A stretch of DNA of 64,000 nucleotides from a virus (lineage: Duplodnaviria; Caudoviricetes): positions 1 to 64,000 of IMG/VR virus record IMGVR_UViG_3300010346_000241, one strand, 5' to 3'. Both the position numbers and the translations under genes were made by a program. This document shows, one piece after another, positions 1,411 through 57,116 of the stretch. The stretch's first letter is position 1, and each line of letters opens with the position of its first letter. Under the pieces are notes generated by a model. The model did no database searches and had not been told where the DNA came from. It was given only the letters and a program-made list of their open reading frames with translations.

Positions 1411-1422
1411 AACATTCTAGTA
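1411..1422 (+). promoter_or_regulatory. AR9-like phage promoter AACA-N6-TA
   Basis: AACA-TTCTAG-TA, identical to copies at 1522 and 2658. Confidence 0.7.
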
Positions 1423-1450
1423 AGAATCCATACAAAGGATGAGATTATAT

Positions 1451-1468
1451 ATGAAACTCTGGGCTTGA
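1451..1468 (+). pseudogene. 5-codon remnant ORF (MKLWA) of an emptied cassette
   Basis: Lies between a promoter with degenerate SD (AAAGGATG) and a second terminator hairpin (1475-1508). Confidence 0.45.
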
Positions 1469-1478
1469 TCATATATGA

Positions 1479-1577
1479 AGGGAGAGGGAATCATCCCTCT
1501 CCCTTCATTCTCGTTCACCTGAACATTCTAGTAACAATACACATCAAAGGAGGAATTCATATGGCTATACTTGGCGG
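1479..1577 (+). repeat. 99-bp terminator-promoter-RBS-start module, copy 1
   Basis: Identical to 2615-2713 except one base (T1515 vs C2651); contains hairpin GGGAGAGGGA/TCCCTCTCCC, AACATTCTAGTA, AAAGGAGG and ATGGCTATACTTGGCGG. Confidence 0.95.
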
Positions 1578-19976: not shown

Positions 19977-22703
19977 ATGGCAAGATATCCTGGCACACAA
20001 TTTGTCCTGAGAGATCGTTCTGATGCTAGTGCCGCTGTACCGCTTCAGCAGGTCAGCAACTCAGCACCTGTCTTTATGACATCTTTCAGAGCACCTAAGG
20101 GACCAGAAGATATGCTTCTTGTTGAAGGTCAGCGTTTCTATAACCTCTACGGTTCACAGGACAAAATGAAGTTCAACACATATGGACAGCCTCTTCTCCA
20201 GGCTTCCATGGACATCAATGAAGGAGCAAGGCTCATCGCAAAGAGAGCAGTTCTTGACTCCGCTATGCTCGGCAACGCTACAGTCGGCGTTGTACTTTCA
20301 AAGCAGGTAGACGTTACATTCACTAAGAATGAAGACGGATACATCAATGCAGCTACATTCGGAACTACTACAAAGTACGTTCTTCGTCCCGTAGTTGTAT
20401 CTATAAAGGACACTGCTAACACACCTGGCGACTCTTCATTTGTAGAGAGCAAGTTCATGTACAAGACTCATAAGGATACTATTTCTAATGAGATTGAGAT
20501 GAAGGAAACTCTTGCAATGAACACTGGTCTCGTTGGTGTATATACTAGCGGCACTACAACAGAAAACATCCCTCTCGATAACGGTACATGGTCTGGAGAT
20601 GTGTATGCTGCTGGTTCAATCCTTAACGGTAACTCCAACGAAGTTGATTTCGGTACACCTTCTAGTACAGCAACAGCTCCTGACTATTCAGAAGCTACTA
20701 CAGATGAAGAGAAAGCTAAGATCCAGGCTAAGTTCCTTTCTGCAGTTTACGCTGCAGCTAACGGCGGTGAGTACTTCTTCCCGCTCTTCTCGATCTTCGA
20801 TAACGGTCGTGGTGCTTCTCTGAAGAACTATGCTATCGTTTTCGATGTAAACACATCTAAGTCTATCGGTAAGGCAGTATATACTCTCAAGGTTGCTGAT
20901 TCTGTAACAGGAAGAACACTTGAGACATATGCATTCACAGTTAACCCTTACTCGAGAAACACAAGCACAGGCTACACATTCGATATCGAGTCAGCTGTTA
21001 ACCTGAAGTCTGATCAGATCAAGGTTAAGTACTACTACGATTCTTATGATAAGCTTATGCAGACAATCAACGATGAACTCAGCATCACAAATGAGTATCT
21101 CTTTGACGATGCAGACTGCCTCTTCGATCATGATCTGTCTGGTAATACACTCGTCGATAACCGCATTGCAAGAGGTGCTACAGCAGACCTCTACAGCCTT
21201 GCTACCTCAAGCACTAATAACCTTGACAGCGGCGATGCTAATATCACATACTACTACTATAACTACAAGACCCGCTCAAAGCAGAATATCTTTGAGAATC
21301 TTCGTTATGGTAGCGATGGTGTAATCGACAGCAATGTATATACAACCACTGCAACTACTAAGGTTAACGTCGGCGATATAGCTAAGGTGTACGATAGCTC
21401 TGCACAAGCTATCACTACATTAACTGCTGGTGCTACTGCTAACCTCGGATTCATGGTTGCAGGAGATACTGCAACTGTACACCCGAAGTGTACTGCTGCT
21501 ATCAACCTTCTGAAGCTTATCCCTGAGCTTGGTATCAACTTCAGCGGTGCAGACTTTGAGACAGCTGATAATCATTCATCTGCTACAAAGCTTAAGGTTG
21601 CTACTACTGGCGGCGGATACTTCTATATCTCAGCTGTAATCAATAAGGTTCAGAATGGTGCAGAGACTGATACATACAAGTATGATCTGACTGTTACAGT
21701 TCAGGAATACTCATGGGATCTCTCTTACCAGAATCAGTACAGAAAGTTCTTCGACGGTCAGTTCGACAGAGACATCTTCAATCTTGACGTATGGTTCCCG
21801 AACTGCGTATTCGATGCTAACTACGATAAGAAGGTTAAGCTCGCTATTCAGAAGCTTGCTGCATACAGAGGCGACTTCTTCGTTTACCTTGACCTCAATA
21901 CTGACGTTAAGGCATATGAAGACGTTGAGCGTCTTATCAATGTAGTAGGCGATGACAACGAGTTCCCGCCTGATGAGGAAGCAACAAACTTCTACATTCA
22001 TGATCGTAACTGCGCTGTTACTTCTATCTACGGCGATATCCGTGATCCTTATTCAAATAAGCAGATCACTGTTACAGCTACATATGCTCTGTCAAGACTC
22101 ATGGTTAAGCACTTCATCAATGGTGTTGGCCGTCCGTTCGCTGGTCAGGGCTATGGCATCATCTTTACAGACTTCATCGAGGGTACTGTAAACTACATTC
22201 CTAAGATCTATCCTTCTTCTGCAATGACATCACGTTCATACATTGGCGATACTTATCCTTCAGACGATGAGACAATCGTTAATGAGAAGCAGCAGATGAC
22301 AGACCTCAAGGTTAACTACGGCTCATACTACAACGGAGTCTTCACTATGGATACAGAGTTCACACTCAATCCTAAGGATTCAGACTTCTCATACATCAAC
22401 AACATCATGCTTGTTCATCAGGTAATGCAGGCTGTAAGAAAGGCTTGCCCTGCCTCAAGATACAAGTTCATCGATAACAACGACCTGTCTACTTACCAGC
22501 GTTCAGTAGAGGAAGTCCTCAAGGTATTCCGTTCTAAGTTCGCTGCTCTGAGATTCAAGTACGTTCAGGACGAGAACTCTGTAGCAAACAAGATCTACTA
22601 TGCAGCTATCGAAGTTGTATTCAGACCGTTTGCACAGGCTGAAATCTTCACAATCACAGCACTCAACTACTCAACACTGAGTAGCGATGTGACTACAGTA
22701 TAA
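19977..22703 (+). CDS. Tail sheath protein
   Basis: N-terminal YPGT, 908 aa, sheath-like C-terminus (YINNIMLVHQVMQAV...IEVVFRPFAQ), strong codon bias, followed by a tube-sized gene. Confidence 0.8.
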   Translation: MARYPGTQFVLRDRSDASAAVPLQQVSNSAPVFMTSFRAPKGPEDMLLVEGQRFYNLYGSQDKMKFNTYGQPLLQASMDINEGARLIAKRAVLDSAMLGNATVGVVLSKQVDVTFTKNEDGYINAATFGTTTKYVLRPVVVSIKDTANTPGDSSFVESKFMYKTHKDTISNEIEMKETLAMNTGLVGVYTSGTTTENIPLDNGTWSGDVYAAGSILNGNSNEVDFGTPSSTATAPDYSEATTDEEKAKIQAKFLSAVYAAANGGEYFFPLFSIFDNGRGASLKNYAIVFDVNTSKSIGKAVYTLKVADSVTGRTLETYAFTVNPYSRNTSTGYTFDIESAVNLKSDQIKVKYYYDSYDKLMQTINDELSITNEYLFDDADCLFDHDLSGNTLVDNRIARGATADLYSLATSSTNNLDSGDANITYYYYNYKTRSKQNIFENLRYGSDGVIDSNVYTTTATTKVNVGDIAKVYDSSAQAITTLTAGATANLGFMVAGDTATVHPKCTAAINLLKLIPELGINFSGADFETADNHSSATKLKVATTGGGYFYISAVINKVQNGAETDTYKYDLTVTVQEYSWDLSYQNQYRKFFDGQFDRDIFNLDVWFPNCVFDANYDKKVKLAIQKLAAYRGDFFVYLDLNTDVKAYEDVERLINVVGDDNEFPPDEEATNFYIHDRNCAVTSIYGDIRDPYSNKQITVTATYALSRLMVKHFINGVGRPFAGQGYGIIFTDFIEGTVNYIPKIYPSSAMTSRSYIGDTYPSDDETIVNEKQQMTDLKVNYGSYYNGVFTMDTEFTLNPKDSDFSYINNIMLVHQVMQAVRKACPASRYKFIDNNDLSTYQRSVEEVLKVFRSKFAALRFKYVQDENSVANKIYYAAIEVVFRPFAQAEIFTITALNYSTLSSDVTTV

Positions 22704-23942: not shown

Positions 23943-26336
23943 TTACTCTTCTTCTTTATTTTTGAGTCTTGATGCTTCTTGCTTTGCTCTTGTGATTACC
24001 TCTTCTATTGCTGGGAGATCGAGATACGATCCTAAGAAGTGAAGTGTTAACGCCTTTACAGCAAGACGTTTAATCATTTCATCATCTTCCTCAGCCAGTT
24101 CTATTTCAGCTATGCTGTTTGCATAGTCCTGAACGTTTGTAACCATCTGGTTAGTATTGGTGATGTTAAGGAACATCGGAGGTGGTAATGTAACCTCAAG
24201 ACAAACATCATCATCCTGATACTCGTTTCTATAAAGCTTAGAGAAGATTCTAGTAAGATTCTTCTGGTACTTAGCCTGACGGTTATATACCTTTCTGAGG
24301 AACTTACTAGATGTCATAGTAAGTTGTGTAGCATATTCAACAGACTGTCTCATCTGAATCATCTCAAGTGGTACATCTGTAGAGTTGATTGCCATTTCTT
24401 CCAGTACTGTCATCAGTTCTGTCTTGAACTCTACCTGCTGACCCTGCATTACTTCAAAGTCTATAGGAGATTCACCTGATGAGTTTCTAGGAATGATGTA
24501 GTCATTGAATCGACCAGTGATATTGAGAATATGGTTGATATTCTCAATCTGTCGAATGTTCATGTTACCCTTCTTGATCTGGTTGATAGTATTCAGAAGA
24601 GTCTTCGAGATGTTTGTATCTACGTTCTGCTTAACATAGTACACTCTCTTATCCTGAGAGCGTGTCATTGTCATGATGCAGTTAGTGATATACATTGCAG
24701 AGTAGAGAGTTGCAGGGAAGAGAGCCTCATGGAGATCAGATATACCTCTATGAGTCTTCTTGTTCATTCTGAAGTAGACATGCTCCATATCCTCAGGAGG
24801 TATGAATGTAACCTTTACCTTACTGAGTTTATGGCCGTTCTCCATATCGTTGTTCTTCAATACCATGTAGATCTCATCTCTCAGATCTTGGTTAGCATTG
24901 ACAAAGTTGGCGTCAATGTATTGAGCTATCTGAGAAGAAAGGAATCTAGTGATATTGTTCTGTCTACCTGTAGCATCTGTAACTGAATTGGTAGAGAGAA
25001 TAGAGTTAGAACCCTTGAGCGACATTGTAGGATCCTGCATCCTGTCATAGTCTCTCATAGGATCATATCTGTAGTCAGTCTCGATATAATAGTATCCGAA
25101 ACAGTGTGTTTCGATGTAGATAGGAATGATGTGTTCACGATCCAGGAGTTTTACGATGCTTCCTGGGATATCGACTACGTCTCCTTTATTAGAGTGTTTC
25201 TGACCAGTTATGAGTCCCTCAGTGCCCCTGTAGTCGAAGTTGTCGAACTTAAGGTCATCCTTTACTGTATCGTCGAACTTAGTCTTGTTATTAGACTTAG
25301 CTTTCTTACCAGTATCGAAGTTAGAGATCTCTGGAGTATTCTTGATTCTGTCTACCTCTGGATCGGTAATCTTCTTATCGGTAGCTTCATTGATAACCTG
25401 ACCTACTGGATCACTAAGAGCCATCTCATTGATCGCTCCTATCTCCTTGTAGAACTTGTATTCATTCTCTACAGTCTCGGTGAGAAGACCAGAGCAATTG
25501 AACTCAATTTCTACTTTATCCATATCTCCGAAGTCTTCCTGCTTAAGTCCATAGCTTTTCATATCAGCTTCGAACTTATCTCTACTGAAGTCGCCAGACT
25601 CAGAAATGATACAATGTTCATGAATGTCAATGTCACCTCTGATGCCAGGCTTGTTCTTGTTAGCAAGAAGTTTAGCTATAGCCTTCTTAGCTGGTACGAT
25701 GTAAACGAACTGCTCACCATACTTAGAAGCATTGTCATAGATCTCTCCAGCGATATCGATGAAGTTGTATCTCTCCTTGATTTCTTTGATATGCTCCTGT
25801 ACTGATGCCTGGACTCCAGCAACAGTAGTGTTAGTTACATTGATGAAGTCCTTACTGAAGTGGTCAGCAGAAAGGACATTGTCCTTTCTAGTATCTAACG
25901 CTTCCTTCAGTTTAGGCATATACTTCACGATAGTATCTATCTTAGCATCATAGTCAGCTACAGTAGTAGTATCATTCATGAAACCAAGCACACCAGTATC
26001 CAGTATGTTTGTATCATTGAGGAGAGACTCAAGATCCTTGTTCATGTCTCTCATCTTGATAGCTTCTGGATTGTTAGCCTGCTGTCTCAAGGCTCTATTA
26101 TACAGAGCACTTAAATTACCCTGACCAGTCTGAGCCTTATTGGAACTCACTATACCATCTATAGAGGCGTCCAGCTTAGACTTTATAGTATCGAGGTCAT
26201 GTTTGTCAGAGGGTTGTGTATAGTATATGCTTTGATAAAGCTTGTCAATGTTTGTCTGGACGAATGACGCCAGACGATTAGCTTTACGATTAGCAGAAGC
26301 AACTTTGCGTTCACGCTGCTTTTGGTTTGAAGCCAT
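23943..26336 (-). CDS. Portal protein
   Basis: Start MASNQ after AAAGGAGG; KYGEQFVY, TRSQDKRVYYV and DYIIPR resemble T4 gp20-family portal motifs. Confidence 0.75.
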   Translation of the reverse strand: MASNQKQRERKVASANRKANRLASFVQTNIDKLYQSIYYTQPSDKHDLDTIKSKLDASIDGIVSSNKAQTGQGNLSALYNRALRQQANNPEAIKMRDMNKDLESLLNDTNILDTGVLGFMNDTTTVADYDAKIDTIVKYMPKLKEALDTRKDNVLSADHFSKDFINVTNTTVAGVQASVQEHIKEIKERYNFIDIAGEIYDNASKYGEQFVYIVPAKKAIAKLLANKNKPGIRGDIDIHEHCIISESGDFSRDKFEADMKSYGLKQEDFGDMDKVEIEFNCSGLLTETVENEYKFYKEIGAINEMALSDPVGQVINEATDKKITDPEVDRIKNTPEISNFDTGKKAKSNNKTKFDDTVKDDLKFDNFDYRGTEGLITGQKHSNKGDVVDIPGSIVKLLDREHIIPIYIETHCFGYYYIETDYRYDPMRDYDRMQDPTMSLKGSNSILSTNSVTDATGRQNNITRFLSSQIAQYIDANFVNANQDLRDEIYMVLKNNDMENGHKLSKVKVTFIPPEDMEHVYFRMNKKTHRGISDLHEALFPATLYSAMYITNCIMTMTRSQDKRVYYVKQNVDTNISKTLLNTINQIKKGNMNIRQIENINHILNITGRFNDYIIPRNSSGESPIDFEVMQGQQVEFKTELMTVLEEMAINSTDVPLEMIQMRQSVEYATQLTMTSSKFLRKVYNRQAKYQKNLTRIFSKLYRNEYQDDDVCLEVTLPPPMFLNITNTNQMVTNVQDYANSIAEIELAEEDDEMIKRLAVKALTLHFLGSYLDLPAIEEVITRAKQEASRLKNKEEE

Positions 26337-26416: not shown

Positions 26417-27103
26417 TCATATCTTGAAGAAACAAACTATACAGTTGTATGTATATATCCTCTTGGTCTCCTTCTTAGTTATCTTCCACTTTGTCACTTC
26501 AAAGTTTGTCATGAAGTAACTATATCTAGGATTATCCAAGATAAGAAGATTGACTTGGTCATTCTTCACTGTTGGTACTACACCACTGAAGAGATACATT
26601 GTATACTTGTCTCCAACATTGACATACTTTGCCCCGTCAGATGCTTTAAGGTTTACATATGTATCCCACTGAGGAGTTGCTTGGAAATCTTTGTAAGCTG
26701 ATATAACTCCTTCTGGGTCGTTCATGTATCTGAATACTGAATTTATAGTAAGCATTATATCACGATAACGAGCATCTGCTACATAGTCCGATACAGAAGT
26801 CTTTCCGAACACTAACAGACCTTTATCTGGTATATAGCACTCTGCGAACTTTTCTATTCTCTGACTCTCTTCTACCTGTTCTAACGATGCTAATACATCT
26901 ACCAGAAAGATTTGCTCATTGAACTGATCGAACTCTGGAATGATTGCATCCATAGTGTAACGAATGTAGTTGTTACCTACTATAAGATACGCATACATCA
27001 CACCACTTATAGTGTCCTTGTGGAAGTATAATGCGTCTCCTGCCTTACCCTTCATCAAGGCTATAACATTCTTCATAGCCTCGAGTATCTCTAATATACT
27101 CAT
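26417..27103 (-). CDS. Hypothetical protein translationally coupled to the polymerase exonuclease subunit
   Basis: ATGA overlap with the upstream gene; 228 aa. Confidence 0.7.
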   Translation of the reverse strand: MSILEILEAMKNVIALMKGKAGDALYFHKDTISGVMYAYLIVGNNYIRYTMDAIIPEFDQFNEQIFLVDVLASLEQVEESQRIEKFAECYIPDKGLLVFGKTSVSDYVADARYRDIMLTINSVFRYMNDPEGVISAYKDFQATPQWDTYVNLKASDGAKYVNVGDKYTMYLFSGVVPTVKNDQVNLLILDNPRYSYFMTNFEVTKWKITKKETKRIYTYNCIVCFFKI

Positions 27104-29097
27104 ACCTCTACTACCTCTCTACTATAACAATTCTCCTCTCTAGACTCTATCTTATTATAGAACTCCGAGAAAGTTCTGACTTCGTCATTGAATGGGAACT
27201 GCTTATGTGGATACTCAGTTCTCTCATTCATTATCTTCTGCTCCCACTCTGGAACAAATGGAGATGTCTGAGTAGTACTGTTCGGTACCTTATAGAATAG
27301 ATATCTTCCCTCTGTACAATGGAGATCAACCTTACCTCTCGGATGTACAATATCTGAGAAGTAAGTTATGACATCATCATACATCTCTTCATATGAAGCA
27401 AGGTGGAACCATCTATGATAGAACTCAAGCCACTGATGAGACTGATAATCCTCAAGGAACTGTCCTTCTCTCTTATACTTGTAATCTTCTCTTGCAAATC
27501 TATTCTCGTTCTTATATACCTGAGTTGGTATAATGATACGAGCAATGATTGTATTAGCCGCAAGATTGAGTTCTGACGTGATAGACGGATAAAGGCTCTT
27601 GTAGTCATAGTCATTCAGATTTCTGAATACCATGATAGGCTTGCCGTTTACTATCATCTTAGAGTAAGGTCCGAGCTTTGTAGGATCTGATACCCAAGCA
27701 CCTGGGAACTTCGTCTTAGTGTTGTTCTTGTTGGTGTTGTTACCCATTACAAAGCCCTGTCTCCAGTACGACTTGAAGGCTCTGTTCTTCAGATATACTG
27801 TCTGACGATATATCTTACTGATACGAGTGTTGTTCAGAAGAACGTTGTTGTATGCATTACCTACATCGTTCACTTTGTTCTCGATACAGTACTGTGAGAT
27901 AACGTCCATGATATTGTATAACACGAATGTTAAGTAATCCTTCTGAGGAAGATCTTCAAGCTTCTCACAGATGTGATGATAGTCAAGTTTACCGAAGCCT
28001 ACTGTCATCTCTGCTATGCTGTCGAGTCTGAAGTTAGGGATCGCTGAACGTCCCTTACGTCTACTAGCAAAGTGAATTAACTGATCAAGATATACAGTCT
28101 TACTGCTTATCTTACAGAAGTCATTTCTCTCAGCAAATTCATTGAAGTTCTTATCATCGATGAAGTAACTTACTTCCTTATACTTGAAGTCTGGATGACA
28201 CATTACCCTTTTGGGGTCCATATTCAACTTCTTACATCTCTCGATGATGTATGGAATATCGAACGCCATGTTCCATGCCAACAAGAAGTCTGGTTCAAGT
28301 TTGTTAATGACATTGAACAGAGTCTTGATTAACTCCTTCTCATCAGTATACATAACTGTCGAGAACTGAAGAGTATCTACACGATACTTCTTAGCTTTCT
28401 CTGGTCCGCCAACTGACTTTATGATGAAGTCTTTAGCTATAGCTTCGAACTTACCGCTATTCAATAACTTCTCAAACTCCAGACATAAGGGATTGTATGG
28501 ATCTCTGAGAAGCAAAGTGAATACAGTCTGAGTTCTGTCGTCTATGAATGTCACCGCATTGATTGGACACTCACCTGGTTCTACGAAGTCGCCCTTCGCA
28601 GTTCTTGAGTCAACCTCGATATCGAGATAGCTTTTGTTTATAGGTCCGAAAGCATTCTTATAAGACTCACCAAACTGGAATCTGTAGAAGTCTTCGATGT
28701 TCATATCAGAACCCATAACTCTTACATGCTCATGAAGTCTCTGATTGTTTCTGTAGTCACCATTCTCTGCATTGTTATCAAAGAATGTCTCATTACCAGT
28801 AGCTTCTGCTATGCTCTTAAGAAGCTTTCTATATGGAACGGTTATCTCGTCACACTTCTCTTTCTCTATGAAAGCGAGATTGTAGTCTACGAATACTTCG
28901 TTCTTTATTCTATACCAAGTATACTCTGGATTCTCTATTGTCTCAATGAACTTCTCACCAGTAACATTGTCTTTGATTACAAGATCTATTGAGTCTGGAA
29001 TGTCGGTGTAACTATTCTTACTCCTATTAGGCCTATGATAGATTGTCTGCAATAACGATAAATCGTATTGCAATGGGTAGTTTCCTATCTGTATCAT
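27100..29097 (-). CDS. Split family B DNA polymerase, N-terminal subunit (3'-5' exonuclease plus motif A)
   Basis: ExoI LDIEVD, ExoII WNMAFD, ExoIII YNIMD, motif A DYKSLYPSI; lacks motifs B and C; true start ATG 29097 after AAAGGAGG. Confidence 0.9.
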   Translation of the reverse strand: MIQIGNYPLQYDLSLLQTIYHRPNRSKNSYTDIPDSIDLVIKDNVTGEKFIETIENPEYTWYRIKNEVFVDYNLAFIEKEKCDEITVPYRKLLKSIAEATGNETFFDNNAENGDYRNNQRLHEHVRVMGSDMNIEDFYRFQFGESYKNAFGPINKSYLDIEVDSRTAKGDFVEPGECPINAVTFIDDRTQTVFTLLLRDPYNPLCLEFEKLLNSGKFEAIAKDFIIKSVGGPEKAKKYRVDTLQFSTVMYTDEKELIKTLFNVINKLEPDFLLAWNMAFDIPYIIERCKKLNMDPKRVMCHPDFKYKEVSYFIDDKNFNEFAERNDFCKISSKTVYLDQLIHFASRRKGRSAIPNFRLDSIAEMTVGFGKLDYHHICEKLEDLPQKDYLTFVLYNIMDVISQYCIENKVNDVGNAYNNVLLNNTRISKIYRQTVYLKNRAFKSYWRQGFVMGNNTNKNNTKTKFPGAWVSDPTKLGPYSKMIVNGKPIMVFRNLNDYDYKSLYPSITSELNLAANTIIARIIIPTQVYKNENRFAREDYKYKREGQFLEDYQSHQWLEFYHRWFHLASYEEMYDDVITYFSDIVHPRGKVDLHCTEGRYLFYKVPNSTTQTSPFVPEWEQKIMNERTEYPHKQFPFNDEVRTFSEFYNKIESREENCYSREVVEV

Positions 29098-29117
29098 TGT
29101 AAGTCCTCCTTTAATCG

Positions 29118-29161
29118 TAATCGTCCCAAACACGTACGATTACTTGATTATTTAATGGTTG
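29118..29161 (-). promoter_or_regulatory. Shared polymerase leader element: AACC-N6-TA promoter plus hairpin UAAUCGU-ACGUGUUUGGG-ACGAUUA
   Basis: 43/44 identical to 57073-57116, upstream of the other polymerase subunit. Confidence 0.85.
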
Positions 29162-29178
29162 CTACTACTTTTAATAGC

Positions 29179-29213
29179 TACAAGATAACGCAATACGGTA
29201 CAAGATAACACAA
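29179..29213 (+). repeat. Two 15-bp direct repeats TACAAGATAAC(G/A)CAA with 20-bp period
   Basis: 29179-29193 and 29199-29213. Confidence 0.7.
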
Positions 29214-29227
29214 GCATGAAATGGCAC

Positions 29228-29366
29228 AAGAAGGACTGGTAGGGACGATCCCTACCAGTCTTCTAGAGAGGTTAATCGTTCTTGTACTAGGATCAGCCAA
29301 ATCACTAGTATCTAGGAGGACTATGACACCATGAAAGGAAACACCACCCGTTTTTATGCTTCCTTT
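29228..29366 (-). ncRNA. Candidate ~140-nt structured small RNA
   Basis: Promoter AACA-TATTGG-TA (29366-29377, minus); 11-bp 5' stem starting at the predicted +1, second stem UACUAG/CUAGUA, 12-bp terminator hairpin 29234-29260; no RBS-led ORF on this strand. Confidence 0.55.
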
Positions 29367-29388
29367 ACCAATATGTTCTGATACAGCC

Positions 29389-29400
29389 AACACTCTTATA
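29389..29400 (+). promoter_or_regulatory. AR9-like promoter, back-to-back with the sRNA promoter
   Basis: AACA-CTCTTA-TA. Confidence 0.7.
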
Positions 29401-29425
29401 AATTTAACAGAAGGAGGTATGATTC

Positions 29426-30400
29426 ATGTTTGAATCTGTAAAACCCAGTTTAGTTGACATCGAGATTGTCGAAGAGCCGACAGTCGAAACGTCGACGTCA
29501 GAACCAAAAGCAGAGCCCGAAAAACGAAAGAGAGGACGTCCTCCAAAGAAGAAGCCCGAAGAGCAGACAGCTAGTGCAGTAACACTCCCAGTTACTCAGA
29601 CTATCTCAATTCCTGCTGAGGCTCCCAAGGCACAGCCTTACGTTCCTCTCTGTACATCTAATGAGCCTTACGAAATGACCTATGCTGAAGGTGTGGGTAT
29701 GATTCGCGGCACTATCCAGCAGATGGATACAATGGCATTAGAGCTCAAGAATGAGTTCGATGCTATCAGACACAACAAGCAGATGAAAGGTAGATATACC
29801 TACATCAGTAATCTTGGTGAGTCTATCTGCGGCATCCTTGGTAACAAGCTTGCTGCTATCAAAGAGCTCAATGCAGTAACAACTAAGTCTCATGAACTTG
29901 AGATGAAACGTTATCAGGCTACTAAGGAACAGCAGATGGCAGAAGATGATGACAGAAGCATGGCAGCAATGTACAATGCTTACATCAACACTCCTATCAA
30001 TGCTGGTAATCTTCCTCCATTCCTTCAGCAGACATCTCAGAACGCTATAGCTAATCCTGGTATGATGGGTTCTGGTACAATGATAACTCCTTCTGGAGAT
30101 ATCGTGGATGCTGGTTATGGTAATTACATGCAGTCTATATCACCAGAACAGAATCGTATGATACTCGAACACAACCCCAGTATCAAAGAGGTTGTAGTTC
30201 TTGACGACGCTACTGGAGCAGCATCATTCGACGTAATCGATACAACAACTGGACAGTCAGTTCCTAATTACCCAAGACCAAACCCAGAGCTTATCGCAGA
30301 AACTATTATAGATCGTTCTACTGGTAGAGCGACTAACAGTAATCTTGGTAAGAGCTGGGACGTAATCACCATTAACGCTGGTGCTATATCAAAGTTCTAA
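29426..30400 (+). CDS. Hypothetical protein with AT-hook-like motif and coiled coil
   Basis: KRKRGRPPKKK in a low-complexity N-terminus; SD AAGGAGG. Confidence 0.7.
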   Translation: MFESVKPSLVDIEIVEEPTVETSTSEPKAEPEKRKRGRPPKKKPEEQTASAVTLPVTQTISIPAEAPKAQPYVPLCTSNEPYEMTYAEGVGMIRGTIQQMDTMALELKNEFDAIRHNKQMKGRYTYISNLGESICGILGNKLAAIKELNAVTTKSHELEMKRYQATKEQQMAEDDDRSMAAMYNAYINTPINAGNLPPFLQQTSQNAIANPGMMGSGTMITPSGDIVDAGYGNYMQSISPEQNRMILEHNPSIKEVVVLDDATGAASFDVIDTTTGQSVPNYPRPNPELIAETIIDRSTGRATNSNLGKSWDVITINAGAISKF

Positions 30401-30407
30401 CAAGTTA

Positions 30408-30447
30408 TATATTATAGAGGTACCAGGAAGTCGTTTCGGCTTCCTGG
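30408..30447 (+). promoter_or_regulatory. Early-type promoter TATATTATA plus leader stem-loop
   Basis: TATATTATA 30408-30416; hairpin CCAGGAAG/CTTCCTGG 30423-30447. Confidence 0.65.
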
Positions 30448-30475
30448 CAATCTAAAATAAAAGGAGGTACAGCCA

Positions 30476-30751
30476 ATGGACGATACAGTCTACATACTGT
30501 ACAAGAAGAACAGCACAGAAGAATGGTTGAAAACTTTCGATAAGAAGGAACTGATTGGTACTATCTTTATGGATGCCATCACCTTTTGGGAGAAAGAGAC
30601 CATAGGGATCAAACAACTCAATCTCAAGATTGCAAAAACCAAATGCGACGATGGTTCCGTACTAGAAGTATACAATATCGTGTACGATGCATCGCCAGAA
30701 TCATACTTTGACATAGCTTACAATGTCAAAGTTATCAAAGGAGGAAAATGA
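30476..30751 (+). CDS. Small hypothetical early protein
   Basis: SD AAAGGAGG; 91 aa. Confidence 0.7.
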   Translation: MDDTVYILYKKNSTEEWLKTFDKKELIGTIFMDAITFWEKETIGIKQLNLKIAKTKCDDGSVLEVYNIVYDASPESYFDIAYNVKVIKGGK

Positions 30752-30752
30752 T

Positions 30753-30914
30753 ATGAGTGATCTTACTAGACTTTTACAAGAAAGAGAGCAGATAGAAGTG
30801 ATGATGGAAGTAATGCAGCTTCCTTCTTCTCAGGATGAGCTCAGAAAACGTTTAGATGAAGTAAACAGAAAGATTGCCATGCTTGAAAACGAACAGGAGG
30901 ACAATGATGAATAA
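30753..30914 (+). CDS. Small coiled-coil protein
   Basis: SD AAAGGAGG, ATG 30753; 53 aa. Confidence 0.6.
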   Translation: MSDLTRLLQEREQIEVMMEVMQLPSSQDELRKRLDEVNRKIAMLENEQEDNDE

Positions 30915-31617
30915 GTTTGACTATGAAAAGACAGGCTATACTGAGCCTACAGAGGAAGATGAAAAGAGAATCTTCACAGAAGAGTACTTACTAAAAGATG
31001 TCTTCGGAACGAAAGTTCTGATGACTACAGGACGTGAGTTCAACGAACTCTACAAAACGCTCCCAGAAGGTGTACATTATTTCGCCATCAGAGGATGTGA
31101 TGATGACCCCAGTATGCCTGCCACAGTAGAAGATAAGGTCTTTGTCAATAGATGCGGAAGCATTCTTAGTAAGGAAGATCTTATAGCTCCTGAAAGAAAG
31201 TCATGTAACCCAAACGATATCTATAGAATCCTCAACGATGAAGAAAGAAAGAGATTTTATGATATGCTTTGGGACTGCGATAACGCAGCTAATATCCCCG
31301 AGGAGGAAGACCAGGAGTTCATGACAATCTCAGACTTCATTCATAAAAATGATGAAGAGTTTGATGTTTGTATAGAAGAGGTCATTCATCATACAATAAA
31401 AGTTAAAGCTAAGGACTCTGAAGAAGCTACTATCCTTGCTGCTAAGAAGTATGTATACGATAATAACTTCTGTGATACCACAACTGAAACTGGATCGATA
31501 GATGATGTGTTGATCTCTGCTAAAGAAAACTCTGGTCCTTCCGCTGGCGAGTATGCGGAATTTAAGGATCTCTACGGCTACGTCAACGATAAAATAGACG
31601 GCAAACCAGTCATCTAA
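30907..31617 (+). CDS. Protein with LPD28-like and DpnD/PcfM-like domains
   Basis: LPEGVHYFAIRGCDDDPSMPATVEDKVFVNRCGSILS; FDVCIEEVIHHTIKVKAKDSEEA. Confidence 0.65.
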   Translation: MNKFDYEKTGYTEPTEEDEKRIFTEEYLLKDVFGTKVLMTTGREFNELYKTLPEGVHYFAIRGCDDDPSMPATVEDKVFVNRCGSILSKEDLIAPERKSCNPNDIYRILNDEERKRFYDMLWDCDNAANIPEEEDQEFMTISDFIHKNDEEFDVCIEEVIHHTIKVKAKDSEEATILAAKKYVYDNNFCDTTTETGSIDDVLISAKENSGPSAGEYAEFKDLYGYVNDKIDGKPVI

Positions 31618-31636
31618 GCAAAGGAGAAATAGTGTC

Positions 31637-32095
31637 ATGAACAAGTTAGACGAAATAGTTTCAGCCAACAATCCCATCTTCGGTCCTAAGACCGTTGATG
31701 GGACCAATACTACAATCATGCTTAACTCAGGATATATCATCAAGTTTAGCAAGATGACAATATTTGAGCAGGATAGAAACAGCTCAAAGATCATATATAT
31801 GCATGGACCTTACGAATACTCAATAGAGTACTTCGAAGCAGAGGAGTATAGAGAGAATCAATACCTCTCTGGTCCAAATTCAGTAGAGATCGTAAAAACG
31901 ATTATAGAAGATGCTGATGCCCGCAATCTTGATATCGTTGCTTCGGGCATCATACGCGGTATAGAGCGTCGTGGTAACGTTCAGATAGATGATGTCAACG
32001 CTTCAAATGACATCACTGAACGTGAACGTAAGAGGGCATTAAACCAAGGAAGGAGATCGACTGATAAGAATGAAAGTGAAAAAGAAAACTCCTAA
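31637..32095 (+). CDS. Hypothetical protein
   Basis: SD AAAGGAG; 152 aa. Confidence 0.65.
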   Translation: MNKLDEIVSANNPIFGPKTVDGTNTTIMLNSGYIIKFSKMTIFEQDRNSSKIIYMHGPYEYSIEYFEAEEYRENQYLSGPNSVEIVKTIIEDADARNLDIVASGIIRGIERRGNVQIDDVNASNDITERERKRALNQGRRSTDKNESEKENS

Positions 32096-52064: not shown

Positions 52065-54209
52065 TTAGTTGTTTAAGTCCTCTGGCTTCTCAATGATTTC
52101 GAAGAGAGGTTTAGTCTGTACTTCACTCTCTACCTTCTCTGCCATGTAAACCTGCGGCTGAACATGAGCAAACATGTCGAGCTTACTAGGTGCTGTCTTT
52201 CTGAAGGAGATTGGTTTGTACAGTGTACGAGCAAGGTTCTCATACTGCATTGTAACCTGAATGCTCGGATTGGCCTCAAGAGCCTGACGAAGAGTGAGTA
52301 TTCTATACTCCTGATCTGGATAGTCCCAGTCTGGCTTGAGAAGAATATCGTCTATAGCTCTGATCTGGTTCATGATTATGATCTCTGCATGGACGGAACG
52401 GATACCACCCATACCACAATCAATAAGCTTGTTGATGAAGTCTCTAAGAATCTCATGTCTTGTATAGTTACAAGTCTTTGTCTTGAGATTGATGATTGAC
52501 ATGACTTCTTTCAGATTCTTACCAAGGTCATCATTATAGATACCTACACCAAAGACAGGTATTCTAGACTGCTGAAGATCTGTGATAGGAATGAAGATGT
52601 CTGTCTCATCCTCATACTGCTTAGAATTGATTAGCTTACAGAACTCATCCTGGAGATACAGACACTCATTGTTAGTACCATGAATCTCTATAACTTCTCC
52701 CTCTGGAGTTATGATCTCGAACTGAGTGATGTAATCTCTGAGTATATCGAAGTCGTCGCCATCACTATCGCTATCGCTCATAGATACAACTGTTTCTGTA
52801 TCTACGCTGTCTCTATCGATATGGATCAGCCACTTCTTACCACCCAGGAATTCGCTGTTTACATAGATATCCTCATCGTCGAATGTAAAGAACTGATCGA
52901 ACTGCTCCTGAGGAATACTCCACTCAATCTTACTAATCTTAGCCTCAAGAAGATGCTTAGCAGACAGCATAAGCTGAGTGAGAGTCTGTGAGATTAACTC
53001 TGCGGCAATCTTACCAATGTTTACGATGCGATTGCCCATAAAGAGATTTCCATAACACTTCCTACAAATGCCCTGTCCTCTGGCTGCGCTTGCGCAAGTG
53101 ATGGGAGATCTCAGATAGATTGTCTTACCCACAAGATCATGTCTAAGAGTATTGAGACAACCAGTGTTATACTCCATTCCATCAGGATGAAGTCTGAAGT
53201 ATCTATCCTGATACATCTCAATATTCTCTTCAGTAAGAGTTACTTCAACGAAGTTCTTGGTATGACAATCATAGTCAGGATCAACGTTGCCGAACTCATC
53301 TGTATAGAGATTCGTATCTATCTGGTTAAGACCAAGTACTCTGGCGAAAGCACCTGAATATGCTGTGTTCTGCTTGGACAGAATCTGAGCCTGACGTCCA
53401 ATTCCTGCTTCAGCGACCATCCATTCAAAACGGTTAAGACCACCTCTCATATAAGAAGCGTCTATAGAGTGTGGGAAGATTCCTCCCTCACCGTTAGGCT
53501 TGATACCAATGTTAGAGATCATCTCTCTAAACTGCTTTGGCTTTACGCCTACCTTAGCCCTGAAAGCATCTGCAAGACAGTGGTCTCTTCCAATCCACTT
53601 CTTACTCTCAAGGATAAGCTCAATGATTCTATTACAATCCTTCATTGCTTCGGCGTTCATCTGATCGGCAGGAAGGTTTGAATAGTCCTTATGCATCAGC
53701 TCATCAAACTCAGGACAAGCATTAGCCATGAGAATGAAGTCCTCATGATTGATTGAGTTGTTGTAGAACAGAGCAAACTTTTCAGCGAACTTAAGAGTCT
53801 TATGATTATTATAGATCATCTCATTAAGTCTCTTAGGATCCATCGTTTCTCTGTTAGGTATGATAGCGTACTTGTTGATGTAGTTTGCTATAGCCTTCTT
53901 ATCTATTCCCTTCTTACAGAAGAACAGATGCCAAGGCTTAAGTGTATGTCCTGCTTCAAGAACGAAGCCCCACATACAAAGATTGACCATAAGATCTGGT
54001 AATGTGAGTCTTACACTCTTCTTATAGTCTCTGAATGTGACTGTTACTTTAGTCTGCATTAGCGGTTGTTCGACGTTATCTGTAATCAGATTCTGCAGAC
54101 CTATACGATAGTCATTAAGTTTTGTGTTGTCGAGATTTTCGGCTACAATCTCAACAGGTTGATTCTGAAGTAAGCATGTCCATACTCCATATAAATCGGT
54201 TCGTGTCAT
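52065..54209 (-). CDS. Multisubunit RNA polymerase beta'-like subunit, C-terminal half (non-virion RNAP)
   Basis: Bridge helix SKQNTAYSGAFARVL, Zn site LRSPITC...ICRKCYG, trigger loop NIGKIAAELISQTLTQLMLSAKH, VHAEIII. Confidence 0.9.
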   Translation of the reverse strand: MTRTDLYGVWTCLLQNQPVEIVAENLDNTKLNDYRIGLQNLITDNVEQPLMQTKVTVTFRDYKKSVRLTLPDLMVNLCMWGFVLEAGHTLKPWHLFFCKKGIDKKAIANYINKYAIIPNRETMDPKRLNEMIYNNHKTLKFAEKFALFYNNSINHEDFILMANACPEFDELMHKDYSNLPADQMNAEAMKDCNRIIELILESKKWIGRDHCLADAFRAKVGVKPKQFREMISNIGIKPNGEGGIFPHSIDASYMRGGLNRFEWMVAEAGIGRQAQILSKQNTAYSGAFARVLGLNQIDTNLYTDEFGNVDPDYDCHTKNFVEVTLTEENIEMYQDRYFRLHPDGMEYNTGCLNTLRHDLVGKTIYLRSPITCASAARGQGICRKCYGNLFMGNRIVNIGKIAAELISQTLTQLMLSAKHLLEAKISKIEWSIPQEQFDQFFTFDDEDIYVNSEFLGGKKWLIHIDRDSVDTETVVSMSDSDSDGDDFDILRDYITQFEIITPEGEVIEIHGTNNECLYLQDEFCKLINSKQYEDETDIFIPITDLQQSRIPVFGVGIYNDDLGKNLKEVMSIINLKTKTCNYTRHEILRDFINKLIDCGMGGIRSVHAEIIIMNQIRAIDDILLKPDWDYPDQEYRILTLRQALEANPSIQVTMQYENLARTLYKPISFRKTAPSKLDMFAHVQPQVYMAEKVESEVQTKPLFEIIEKPEDLNN

Positions 54210-54269
54210 TGTCCTCTACCTCCTTAGTATTGGATAGTTTCAGTATAGGTAAACCTCTACTGTCGCTCC

Positions 54270-57054: not shown

Positions 57055-57072
57055 AGTTTTCCTCCTTGTTCA

Positions 57073-57116
57073 TAATCGTCCCAAACACGTACGATTATTT
57101 GATTATTTAATGGTTG
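57073..57116 (-). promoter_or_regulatory. Shared polymerase leader element, copy 2
   Basis: 43/44 identical to 29118-29161. Confidence 0.85.

Follow-up and report, generated by a model that had tools for sequence, protein, structure and literature searches.

The divergent region upstream of the DNA polymerase gene

The 229,448-bp sequence analysed here is a full IMG/VR virus record, and the window is its first 64 kb (64,000 nucleotides). Genes in the window encode a split family-B DNA polymerase, RNA polymerase beta/beta'-like subunits, a helicase, the major head protein and virion proteins. The nearest cultured relatives are the Bacillus phages AR9 and PBS1, with a polymerase identity of only 31%, and a comparison with a phage collection by DNA returned no match to this phage. 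The source is an uncultured AR9-like jumbo phage. Gene calls in this genome come from a simple ORF/SD caller, and promoter classes were assigned by motif.

Part 1 of the polymerase gene and a diverging 324-aa gene are separated by a 328-bp intergenic region (29098-29425) that houses a candidate small RNA (sRNA) unit (Table 1). An Rfam cmscan of positions 27000-32000 at E <= 10 gave no match in 29100-29430, and RoxS/RsaE and the other Rfam families were thus not encountered there.

Table 1. Features of the intergenic region and its flanking genes, ordered by position in the window.
Feature	Position	Strand	Remarks
DNA polymerase part 1	27100-29097	minus	one flank of the sRNA intergenic region
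Polymerase's own promoter-like site, AACC-ATTAAA-TA	29149-29160	minus	downstream of the sRNA terminator; context
Predicted terminator, 12-bp stem GACUGGUAGGGA/UCCCUACCAGUC (29260-29249/29245-29234), UCG loop	29228-29260	minus	tail UCCUUCUU to ~29228
Motif B, second pyrimidine patch CCUCUCU	29265-29271	minus	directly before the terminator
H2, variable middle hairpin ACUAGUGAU..AUCCUAGU	29286-29309	minus	two pairs change on both sides among close relatives
Motif A core, CAU..UCCUCC	CAU 29325-29323, UCCUCC 29320-29315	minus	reverse complement of SD plus AUG
Linker CAUGGUGUCAUAGUCCUCCU, single-stranded	29314-29333	minus	holds motif A
H1, 5'-terminal 11-bp hairpin AAAGGAAGCAU/GUGUUUCCUUU, 11-nt loop	29334-29366	minus	starts exactly at +1
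AR9-type late promoter AACA-TATTGG-TA, AACATATTGGTA	29366-29377	minus	AACA 29377-29374, TATTGG, TA 29367-29366; predicted +1 = A29366
Back-to-back divergent late promoter AACACTCTTATA	29389-29400	plus	26 nt upstream of the 324-aa gene, which it serves; outside the RNA
324-aa gene	29426-30400 (ATG 29426)	plus	function unassigned; other flank of the sRNA intergenic region

The unit starts at a late-type promoter

Late promoters of AR9 have the form AACA-(6N)-TA/G, in which the last base is the start, and are used by the non-virion RNA polymerase (PMC5312081). An earlier note on this DNA had proposed a minus-strand promoter of this form with +1 at 29366, and we found it as described. Genome-wide, AACA-N6-T(A/G) has 275 matches, 62 of them intergenic, though intergenic DNA, taken as the DNA outside our own ORF calls, makes up only 8.8% of the genome (binomial p = 5e-12); the motif is thus enriched between genes beyond chance. 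Most of the intergenic matches (53/62) run in the direction of the next gene, typically from 25-30 nt upstream of its ATG, and the motif lies upstream of the genes for the major head protein (42814) and a virion structural protein (23943-26336). The refined consensus in this genome is (A/G)AACAT-N4-(A/G)TAA, and both the late-promoter consensus and the predicted start base are identical to those of AR9.

A second, AT-rich motif, GTTATATATTATAGAGGTG, resembles AR9 early promoters and precedes the beta' gene among others. Examples of sites located 50-95 nt before genes are 30408(+), 54278(-), 50448(-), 141445(+), 164019(+), 195185(-) and 219933(+). The virion RNA polymerase of this phage probably uses this motif as its promoter. 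Since late and early-like motifs are both present, the phage uses the AR9 two-polymerase code and the 29377 site is a good late promoter. We infer that the non-virion (late) RNA polymerase would start a transcript there.

Architecture of the predicted RNA

What would such a transcript look like? The earlier note had described an 11-bp stem at +1, a linker, a second stem and a 12-bp terminator, and all four elements lie where it had placed them. The fold of 29228-29377 is stable beyond chance (-50.2 kcal/mol, z = -3.9, 0/200 shuffles as good). Within the linker, the UCCUCC core has an unpaired probability of 0.53, where the RNA as a whole averages 0.33.

The terminator stem is GC-rich and its tail is U-poor in the window. 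With so poor a U-tract, some transcripts may read through into the polymerase gene. Hairpins between convergent genes of this phage combine a GC-rich stem of 9-12 bp with a short loop and a short pyrimidine tail, and the hairpin at 29260-29234 resembles them. In more AT-rich relatives (L021, L027, L028, L030 and L006), clear U-runs follow the homologous hairpin on the polymerase strand.

The unit is conserved among related phages

We assembled 13 further copies of the locus. Three are about 95% identical to the window (L004, L005 and L016), and ten are graded relatives, reached through polymerase homologues (polymerase identity 83% for L017, 75% for L018, 67% for L019, 66% for L020, 61% for L021, 59% for L027, 57% for L029, 55% for L028 and 53% for L030) or through IMG/VR (L006, 55%); L022, which lacks the upstream region, was left out. 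In all 13 contigs, which span polymerase identities of 53-98%, the unit is flanked by the polymerase gene on one side and the diverging gene on the other. The layout is shared by all copies: two diverging AACA-N6-TA promoters spaced 12-40 nt apart, and a 109-176-nt unit on the polymerase strand that opens with a hairpin at +1 to +3 and closes with a terminator hairpin. The promoter of the sRNA itself is kept in 13/13 related copies, and the divergent pair is present in the window and nine relatives, the pair of L020 falling just outside its called intergenic stretch. At the AR9 polymerase locus we found no equivalent unit. In L027, the diverging 323-aa gene and the sRNA unit are separated by an inserted 87-aa gene with a Pfam Tad8 match (PF25189; 1952-2215, minus).

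The 5' hairpin H1 is present in 14/14 copies. Because MAFFT gave no alignment of the diverged copies, covariation of H1 across the wide range was read from per-sequence folds and is descriptive, with no formal column count. The inner stems differ in sequence yet keep their pairing (for example AAGGAAGCA/UGUUUCCUU, AAGGAAUA/UAUUCCUU, AAGAGUG/CACUCUU and AAAGGUAGAUU/AAUCUACUUUU), several stem positions switching among A-U, U-A and G-C, and the z-scores of the hairpin range from -1.7 to -4.9 in 10/11 lineages. The RNAalifold structure of the four close copies has 97% of its cells paired, versus 34-58% in slid controls. Three pairs are compensated in this set, with both sides changed, one of them a terminator pair in L005; compensatory changes were seen in H1, H2 and the terminator. 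Where the window has H2, L017 has CUGGUGAU/AUCAUCGG.

A covariance model built from the close copies recovered L017 at 2e-27, and L019, L020 and L028 weakly, at the expected coordinates; it did not reach the most diverged copies and detected no paralogue elsewhere in the genome. We also observed that a CGGG core in the H1 loop (29345-29350) is kept in the window group, L019 and L020 despite differing stems (ACGGGUGG, AUCGGGCC and UUCGGGUC). This core may be a loop contact site.

A motif mirroring the ribosome-binding site survives sequence divergence

In the otherwise unalignable RNA, a single sequence feature survives, CAU-N2-9-YCCUCY (motif A). The pattern CAU-N2-9-[CU]CCUC[CU], which we defined post hoc, occurs in 10/11 lineages versus about 2% per lineage in dinucleotide shuffles. 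It reads GUCAUAGUCCUCC in the window, GUCAUUUUAAGUCCUCC in L019, CAUUUUAGUAUUCCUCU in L029 and L030, and CAUGAUUCCUCU in L006; the exception is L027, which is without the CCUC core. The linker is invariant in the four copies of about 95% identity, and the CCUC cores are unpaired more often than the RNA average. The reverse complement of motif A is a canonical SD-spacer-AUG. Motif B is found as (A/U)(A/U)CCUCUCU in the window, L016, L004, L005, L017, L018, L019 and L020, and related UUCCUCU(C)U patches occur in L021, L029, L030 and L006, two or three CU-rich patches per RNA being present in several lineages.

We computed duplex energies of the seed with 211 start regions of the phage and obtained a mean of -15.5 kcal/mol, where in-gene windows give -9.6 and shuffled seeds -9.0 (z = -6.7). 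More than half of the start regions (53%) reach -15 kcal/mol or better. Thus, the seed is generically anti-RBS.

Could the RNA be functionless? The divergent promoter pair and the terminator form an invariant layout, and the second of two back-to-back late promoters might simply fire toward the polymerase gene, the terminator being there to stop it. We regard such a by-product of promoter architecture as very unlikely: (i) the 5' hairpin is kept through compensatory changes; (ii) motif A is found in 10/11 lineages within sequence that cannot otherwise be aligned; and (iii) the ~95% copies share a near-invariant 53-nt stretch, in contrast to the variable flanks and H2.

The conserved strand is the minus strand and is non-coding

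The earlier note had also pointed to an SD-led 16-codon ORF on the plus strand (29331-29381) as a possible cis target. The ORF exists in the window but is not conserved in close relatives. In copies about 95% identical its length is 16, 33, >50 and 33 codons, because of indels and frameshifts, and elsewhere it is 3-28 codons. We found no conserved peptide from this ORF among the copies compared, no conserved ORF on either strand of the unit, and no conserved plus-strand promoter upstream of the mini-ORF in the copies scanned.

A plus-strand element would nevertheless account for the canonical SD-spacer-AUG that stands on this strand in 10/11 lineages and is followed by short ORFs: a real RBS and mini-ORF upstream of the 324-aa gene, specifying, say, a leader peptide, or else a type I toxin to which the minus-strand RNA would be antisense. 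Against it, the reading frame varies as described, the terminator hairpin stands in the path of plus-strand reading, and the 324-aa gene has its own promoter downstream of the mini-ORF. The SD-AUG spacing in the window group is 3 or 11 nt. Moreover, the G.U pairs of the hairpins fit the minus strand only and become A.C mismatches on the plus strand. A plus-strand element is therefore highly improbable in our estimate. With variable length, frameshifts, no promoter and G.U pairs on the other strand, we rejected the 16-codon ORF as a gene or cis target; likewise, the unit does not qualify as a cis-antisense RNA or type I antitoxin, as no conserved, promoter-served gene lies opposite it.

We conclude from these sequence comparisons that the minus-strand stretch from 29366 to ~29228 is a genuine, independent gene for a predicted small RNA.

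The seed does not discriminate among start regions

Which messages might the RNA address? The earlier note had singled out three starts, and the complementarities it reported are present: 13/14 to GAGGACAAUGACAC at the beta' start (54203-54216), 12/13 to AGGAGGACAAUGA at 30895-30907 and 9/9 to AGGAGGACU before the polymerase (29102-29110). We then ranked the 22-nt linker against the 211 start regions, using hybridisation energy only, as in all target tests. The polymerase came 8th, beta' 16th and the 30904 gene below 30th, and the top position was taken by polymerase part 2. Mock probes (20-mers downstream of the SD from 125 real genes) find a 13/14 match elsewhere in 34% of cases and at least three matches of >=12/14 in 48%; the complement of the real linker has one 13/14 match and three at >=12/14. 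Thus, the match quality is typical of any RBS-like probe, and as specific targets beta', the polymerase and the 30904 gene do no better than chance. The note's own caveat, that anti-SD seeds match many RBSs by chance, was correct. Where half of the start regions pair, matching an anti-SD seed by eye to single starts is no evidence of targeting. For beta', one pair is lost in a 95% relative (AUGACAA), and no matching change is seen in a 55% relative.

Nor did we detect a preference for early genes. GGAGGAC precedes the helicase gene and the 18148 start and GGAGGAA the capsid gene, as the note had reported, and GGAGGAA also stands before the genes at 19977 and 22721, but GGAGGAC is not an early-gene signature: it stands before 16 genes, 3/19 of the early type versus 9/68 of the late type (Fisher p = 0.72). 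Duplex energies with the seed are no different between early- and late-class start regions (p = 0.74). A joint ranking of 104 ortholog pairs in two complete genomes (CopraRNA-like) gave no correlation (rho = 0.12, p = 0.23), and its best joint score was no better than chance (P = 0.51). When cognate and non-cognate pairs were compared in 11 lineages, sRNAs paired no better with the translation-initiation region (TIR) of their own polymerase (p = 0.71), and the same comparison for the diverging gene's TIR gave p = 0.16; we thus saw no co-evolution of the RNA with either TIR. In the genome as a whole, exact complementarity amounts to three 13-mers, a number near the ~0.9 expected by our own estimate. 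One of them (213769-213781) lies on the minus-strand TIR of gene 212038-213768 and sets AGGAAACACCACCAUG against the H1 loop and 3' arm, GGUGGUGUUUCCU.

The note had read the RNA as an early-to-late feedback switch damping early and replication genes, the polymerase included. With no class or gene specificity, this switch is unsupported. Moreover, the polymerase has its own late-type promoter, so that the RNA and its supposed target share a promoter class, which weakens the logic of a switch. The targets of the sRNA are probably not those that the note named.

Alternatively, the unit could act in cis, as a leader of the DNA polymerase gene. The stop at the hairpin would then mean insulation or attenuation; in a read-through variant, the anti-SD AGUCCUCCU would fold back on the polymerase SD with its 9/9 complementarity, leaving only transcripts from the proximal promoter to be translated. 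The position of the unit fits, on the same strand and 130 nt upstream of the polymerase, with synteny kept in all relatives, as do the U-poor tail of the window terminator and the 8th rank of the polymerase TIR. Several findings speak against it. A promoter-like site AAC[ACT]-N6-TA stands between terminator and polymerase in the window and, 60-85 nt before the polymerase ATG, in 11/11 relatives in which polymerase-proximal sequence was scanned. The terminators of relatives carry U-runs. The polymerase SD is changed to AGGAGGAAU in L005 while the RNA is unchanged, polymerase SDs are weak in L018 and L030, and cognate pairs are no better than non-cognate ones. We consider a cis-acting leader improbable.

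About half of all start regions in this phage, those of late structural genes among them, pair with the seed to a similar degree, and this sits poorly with a selective repressor. Because the seed matches phage late starts equally well, the true targets may be host messages, or the RNA may act more globally or through a protein.

How might the RNA act?

The earlier reading of the locus as a late sRNA holds in part: a discrete minus-strand unit is there, with its own late-type promoter, a predicted terminator and a conserved anti-SD/anti-AUG element that is mostly unpaired, but neither the targets nor the switch stood up. The reading we prefer, to which we give about an even chance, is a conserved, bounded minus-strand non-coding RNA gene, most likely late, whose product carries a selected anti-SD/anti-AUG element and pairs in trans with initiation regions. 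According to this model, the late RNA polymerase would initiate at the AACA-N6-TA promoter and produce an RNA of about 135-139 nt, running from 29366 down to ~29228 on the minus strand. The 5'-terminal hairpin would protect its 5' end, and the RNA would expose CAU..UCCUCC, the mirror of a Shine-Dalgarno sequence and AUG, plus the second CCUCUCU patch. Transcription would stop at the GC-rich terminator, ahead of the polymerase's own promoter. Most likely, the RNA would act in trans by pairing with translation-initiation regions and so keep ribosomes from the SD and start codon.

The generic pairing also allows a broader role, which we hold to be unlikely. The RNA could be a general start-site mask that imitates in linear form what the 30S initiation complex uses to read a message, namely the 16S anti-SD CCUCC and the initiator anticodon CAU, with a spacing like that between SD and AUG. 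In bulk, such a late RNA would compete with ribosomes for canonical SD-led starts and reshape translation globally, for example in host shut-off or by favouring messages with atypical leaders, and would not regulate one gene.

A different possibility is that the RNA does not pair with messages but binds a protein of host or phage origin, or titrates it, through its hairpins and through its pyrimidine patches, which resemble the CCUCC of the 16S rRNA 3' end; the protein could be an RNA-binding regulator or a nuclease. The recurrence of two or three CU-rich patches per RNA in several lineages is consistent with a decoy of this kind, as are the kept CGGG of the H1 loop and the lack of a conserved RNA target in the cognate-pairing and ortholog-ranking tests. 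A plain pyrimidine-tract binding site would have no need of a CAU at SD-to-AUG-like spacing, however; we know of no candidate partner protein, and none of the results argues directly for protein binding. We doubt that the RNA is such a decoy.

Relation to known systems

RoxS and RsaE are base-pairing sRNAs of Firmicutes with exposed C-rich seeds (CCCC). The RNA described here resembles them in being short, with its own promoter, a predicted intrinsic terminator and at least two unpaired pyrimidine patches complementary to the Shine-Dalgarno sequence, and in that the seed is conserved and the scaffold varies. It differs in that there is no sequence or Rfam relationship, it is phage-encoded with a promoter of a phage multisubunit RNA polymerase, and its seed is CU-rich (CCUCC) with an anti-AUG rather than CCCC.

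Among phages, the sar RNA of P22 (target ant) and the c4 RNA of P1 and P7 (target icd-ant) are antisense RNAs that mask a ribosome-binding site. These too are small phage RNAs complementary to an SD/start region, and they block translation. They are encoded opposite or next to a single defined target, which they match perfectly or specifically, whereas our RNA has no expressed gene on the opposite strand and matches canonical start regions generically. In T4, the endoribonuclease RegB and the repressor RegA are proteins with documented class specificity for early messages. The likeness is one of functional analogy only, to phage devices that work on the SD/start regions of many phage messages and thereby alter the translation programme; RegB and RegA are early-class-specific proteins, in contrast to this RNA, for which we found no class specificity.

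In its transcription, the unit matches AR9 late units by promoter consensus, start base and the genome-wide use of the motif before structural genes. It differs in that no such unit precedes the AR9 polymerase; there, an early promoter is annotated and the upstream gene runs in the same direction. The non-coding late products reported for AR9 are antisense RNAs, unlike this RNA (PMC5312081). This is thus a new RNA family of a known kind, closest in kind to RoxS/RsaE, P22 sar and P1 c4, and closest in transcription to an AR9 late unit.

The family is kept down to 53% polymerase identity, always beside replication genes, and its selected element mirrors the RBS. For AR9-like phages of gut or rumen Firmicutes, it gives a concrete entry point to the study of post-transcriptional control. 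To our knowledge, regulatory RNAs of jumbo phages are almost unexplored, and we know of no other clade-conserved regulatory RNA made by a phage's own multisubunit RNA polymerase.

Other intergenic elements

Several further elements were noticed in the course of the analysis. A leader of ~57 nt before polymerase part 1 (29104-29161, minus) is repeated before polymerase part 2 (57060-57116, minus) with 91% identity; it consists of AACC-N6-TA, a hairpin AAUCGUACG..CGAUU and an SD. The stretch from the sRNA terminator to the polymerase promoter contains a direct repeat of GTTATCTTGTA, two copies with a 9-nt gap (29179-29209, minus). This 11-mer occurs nowhere else in the 229-kb genome; its copies are diverged in L004, and L005 keeps only a TTGTAGACTAT remnant. 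We rejected the repeats as a general promoter, given their presence at this locus only; a possible role is that of an operator or binding site.

A third intergenic motif, ATTGTATAC(A/T)AT(A/T)(A)GAG, stands 33-86 nt before several genes, including polymerase part 2. Its sites in the full genome are 57138(-), 120726(-), 145031(-), 148928(-) and 153264(-), with a variant at 29183(-). The motif could mark a regulator site or yet another class of promoter. Finally, a late promoter followed by a structured, ORF-poor stretch and a terminator was found in three more units, at 176245-176460 (+), from 155614 to ~155440 (-), and at 1411-1510 (+) in the window. These three units are candidate non-coding RNAs.
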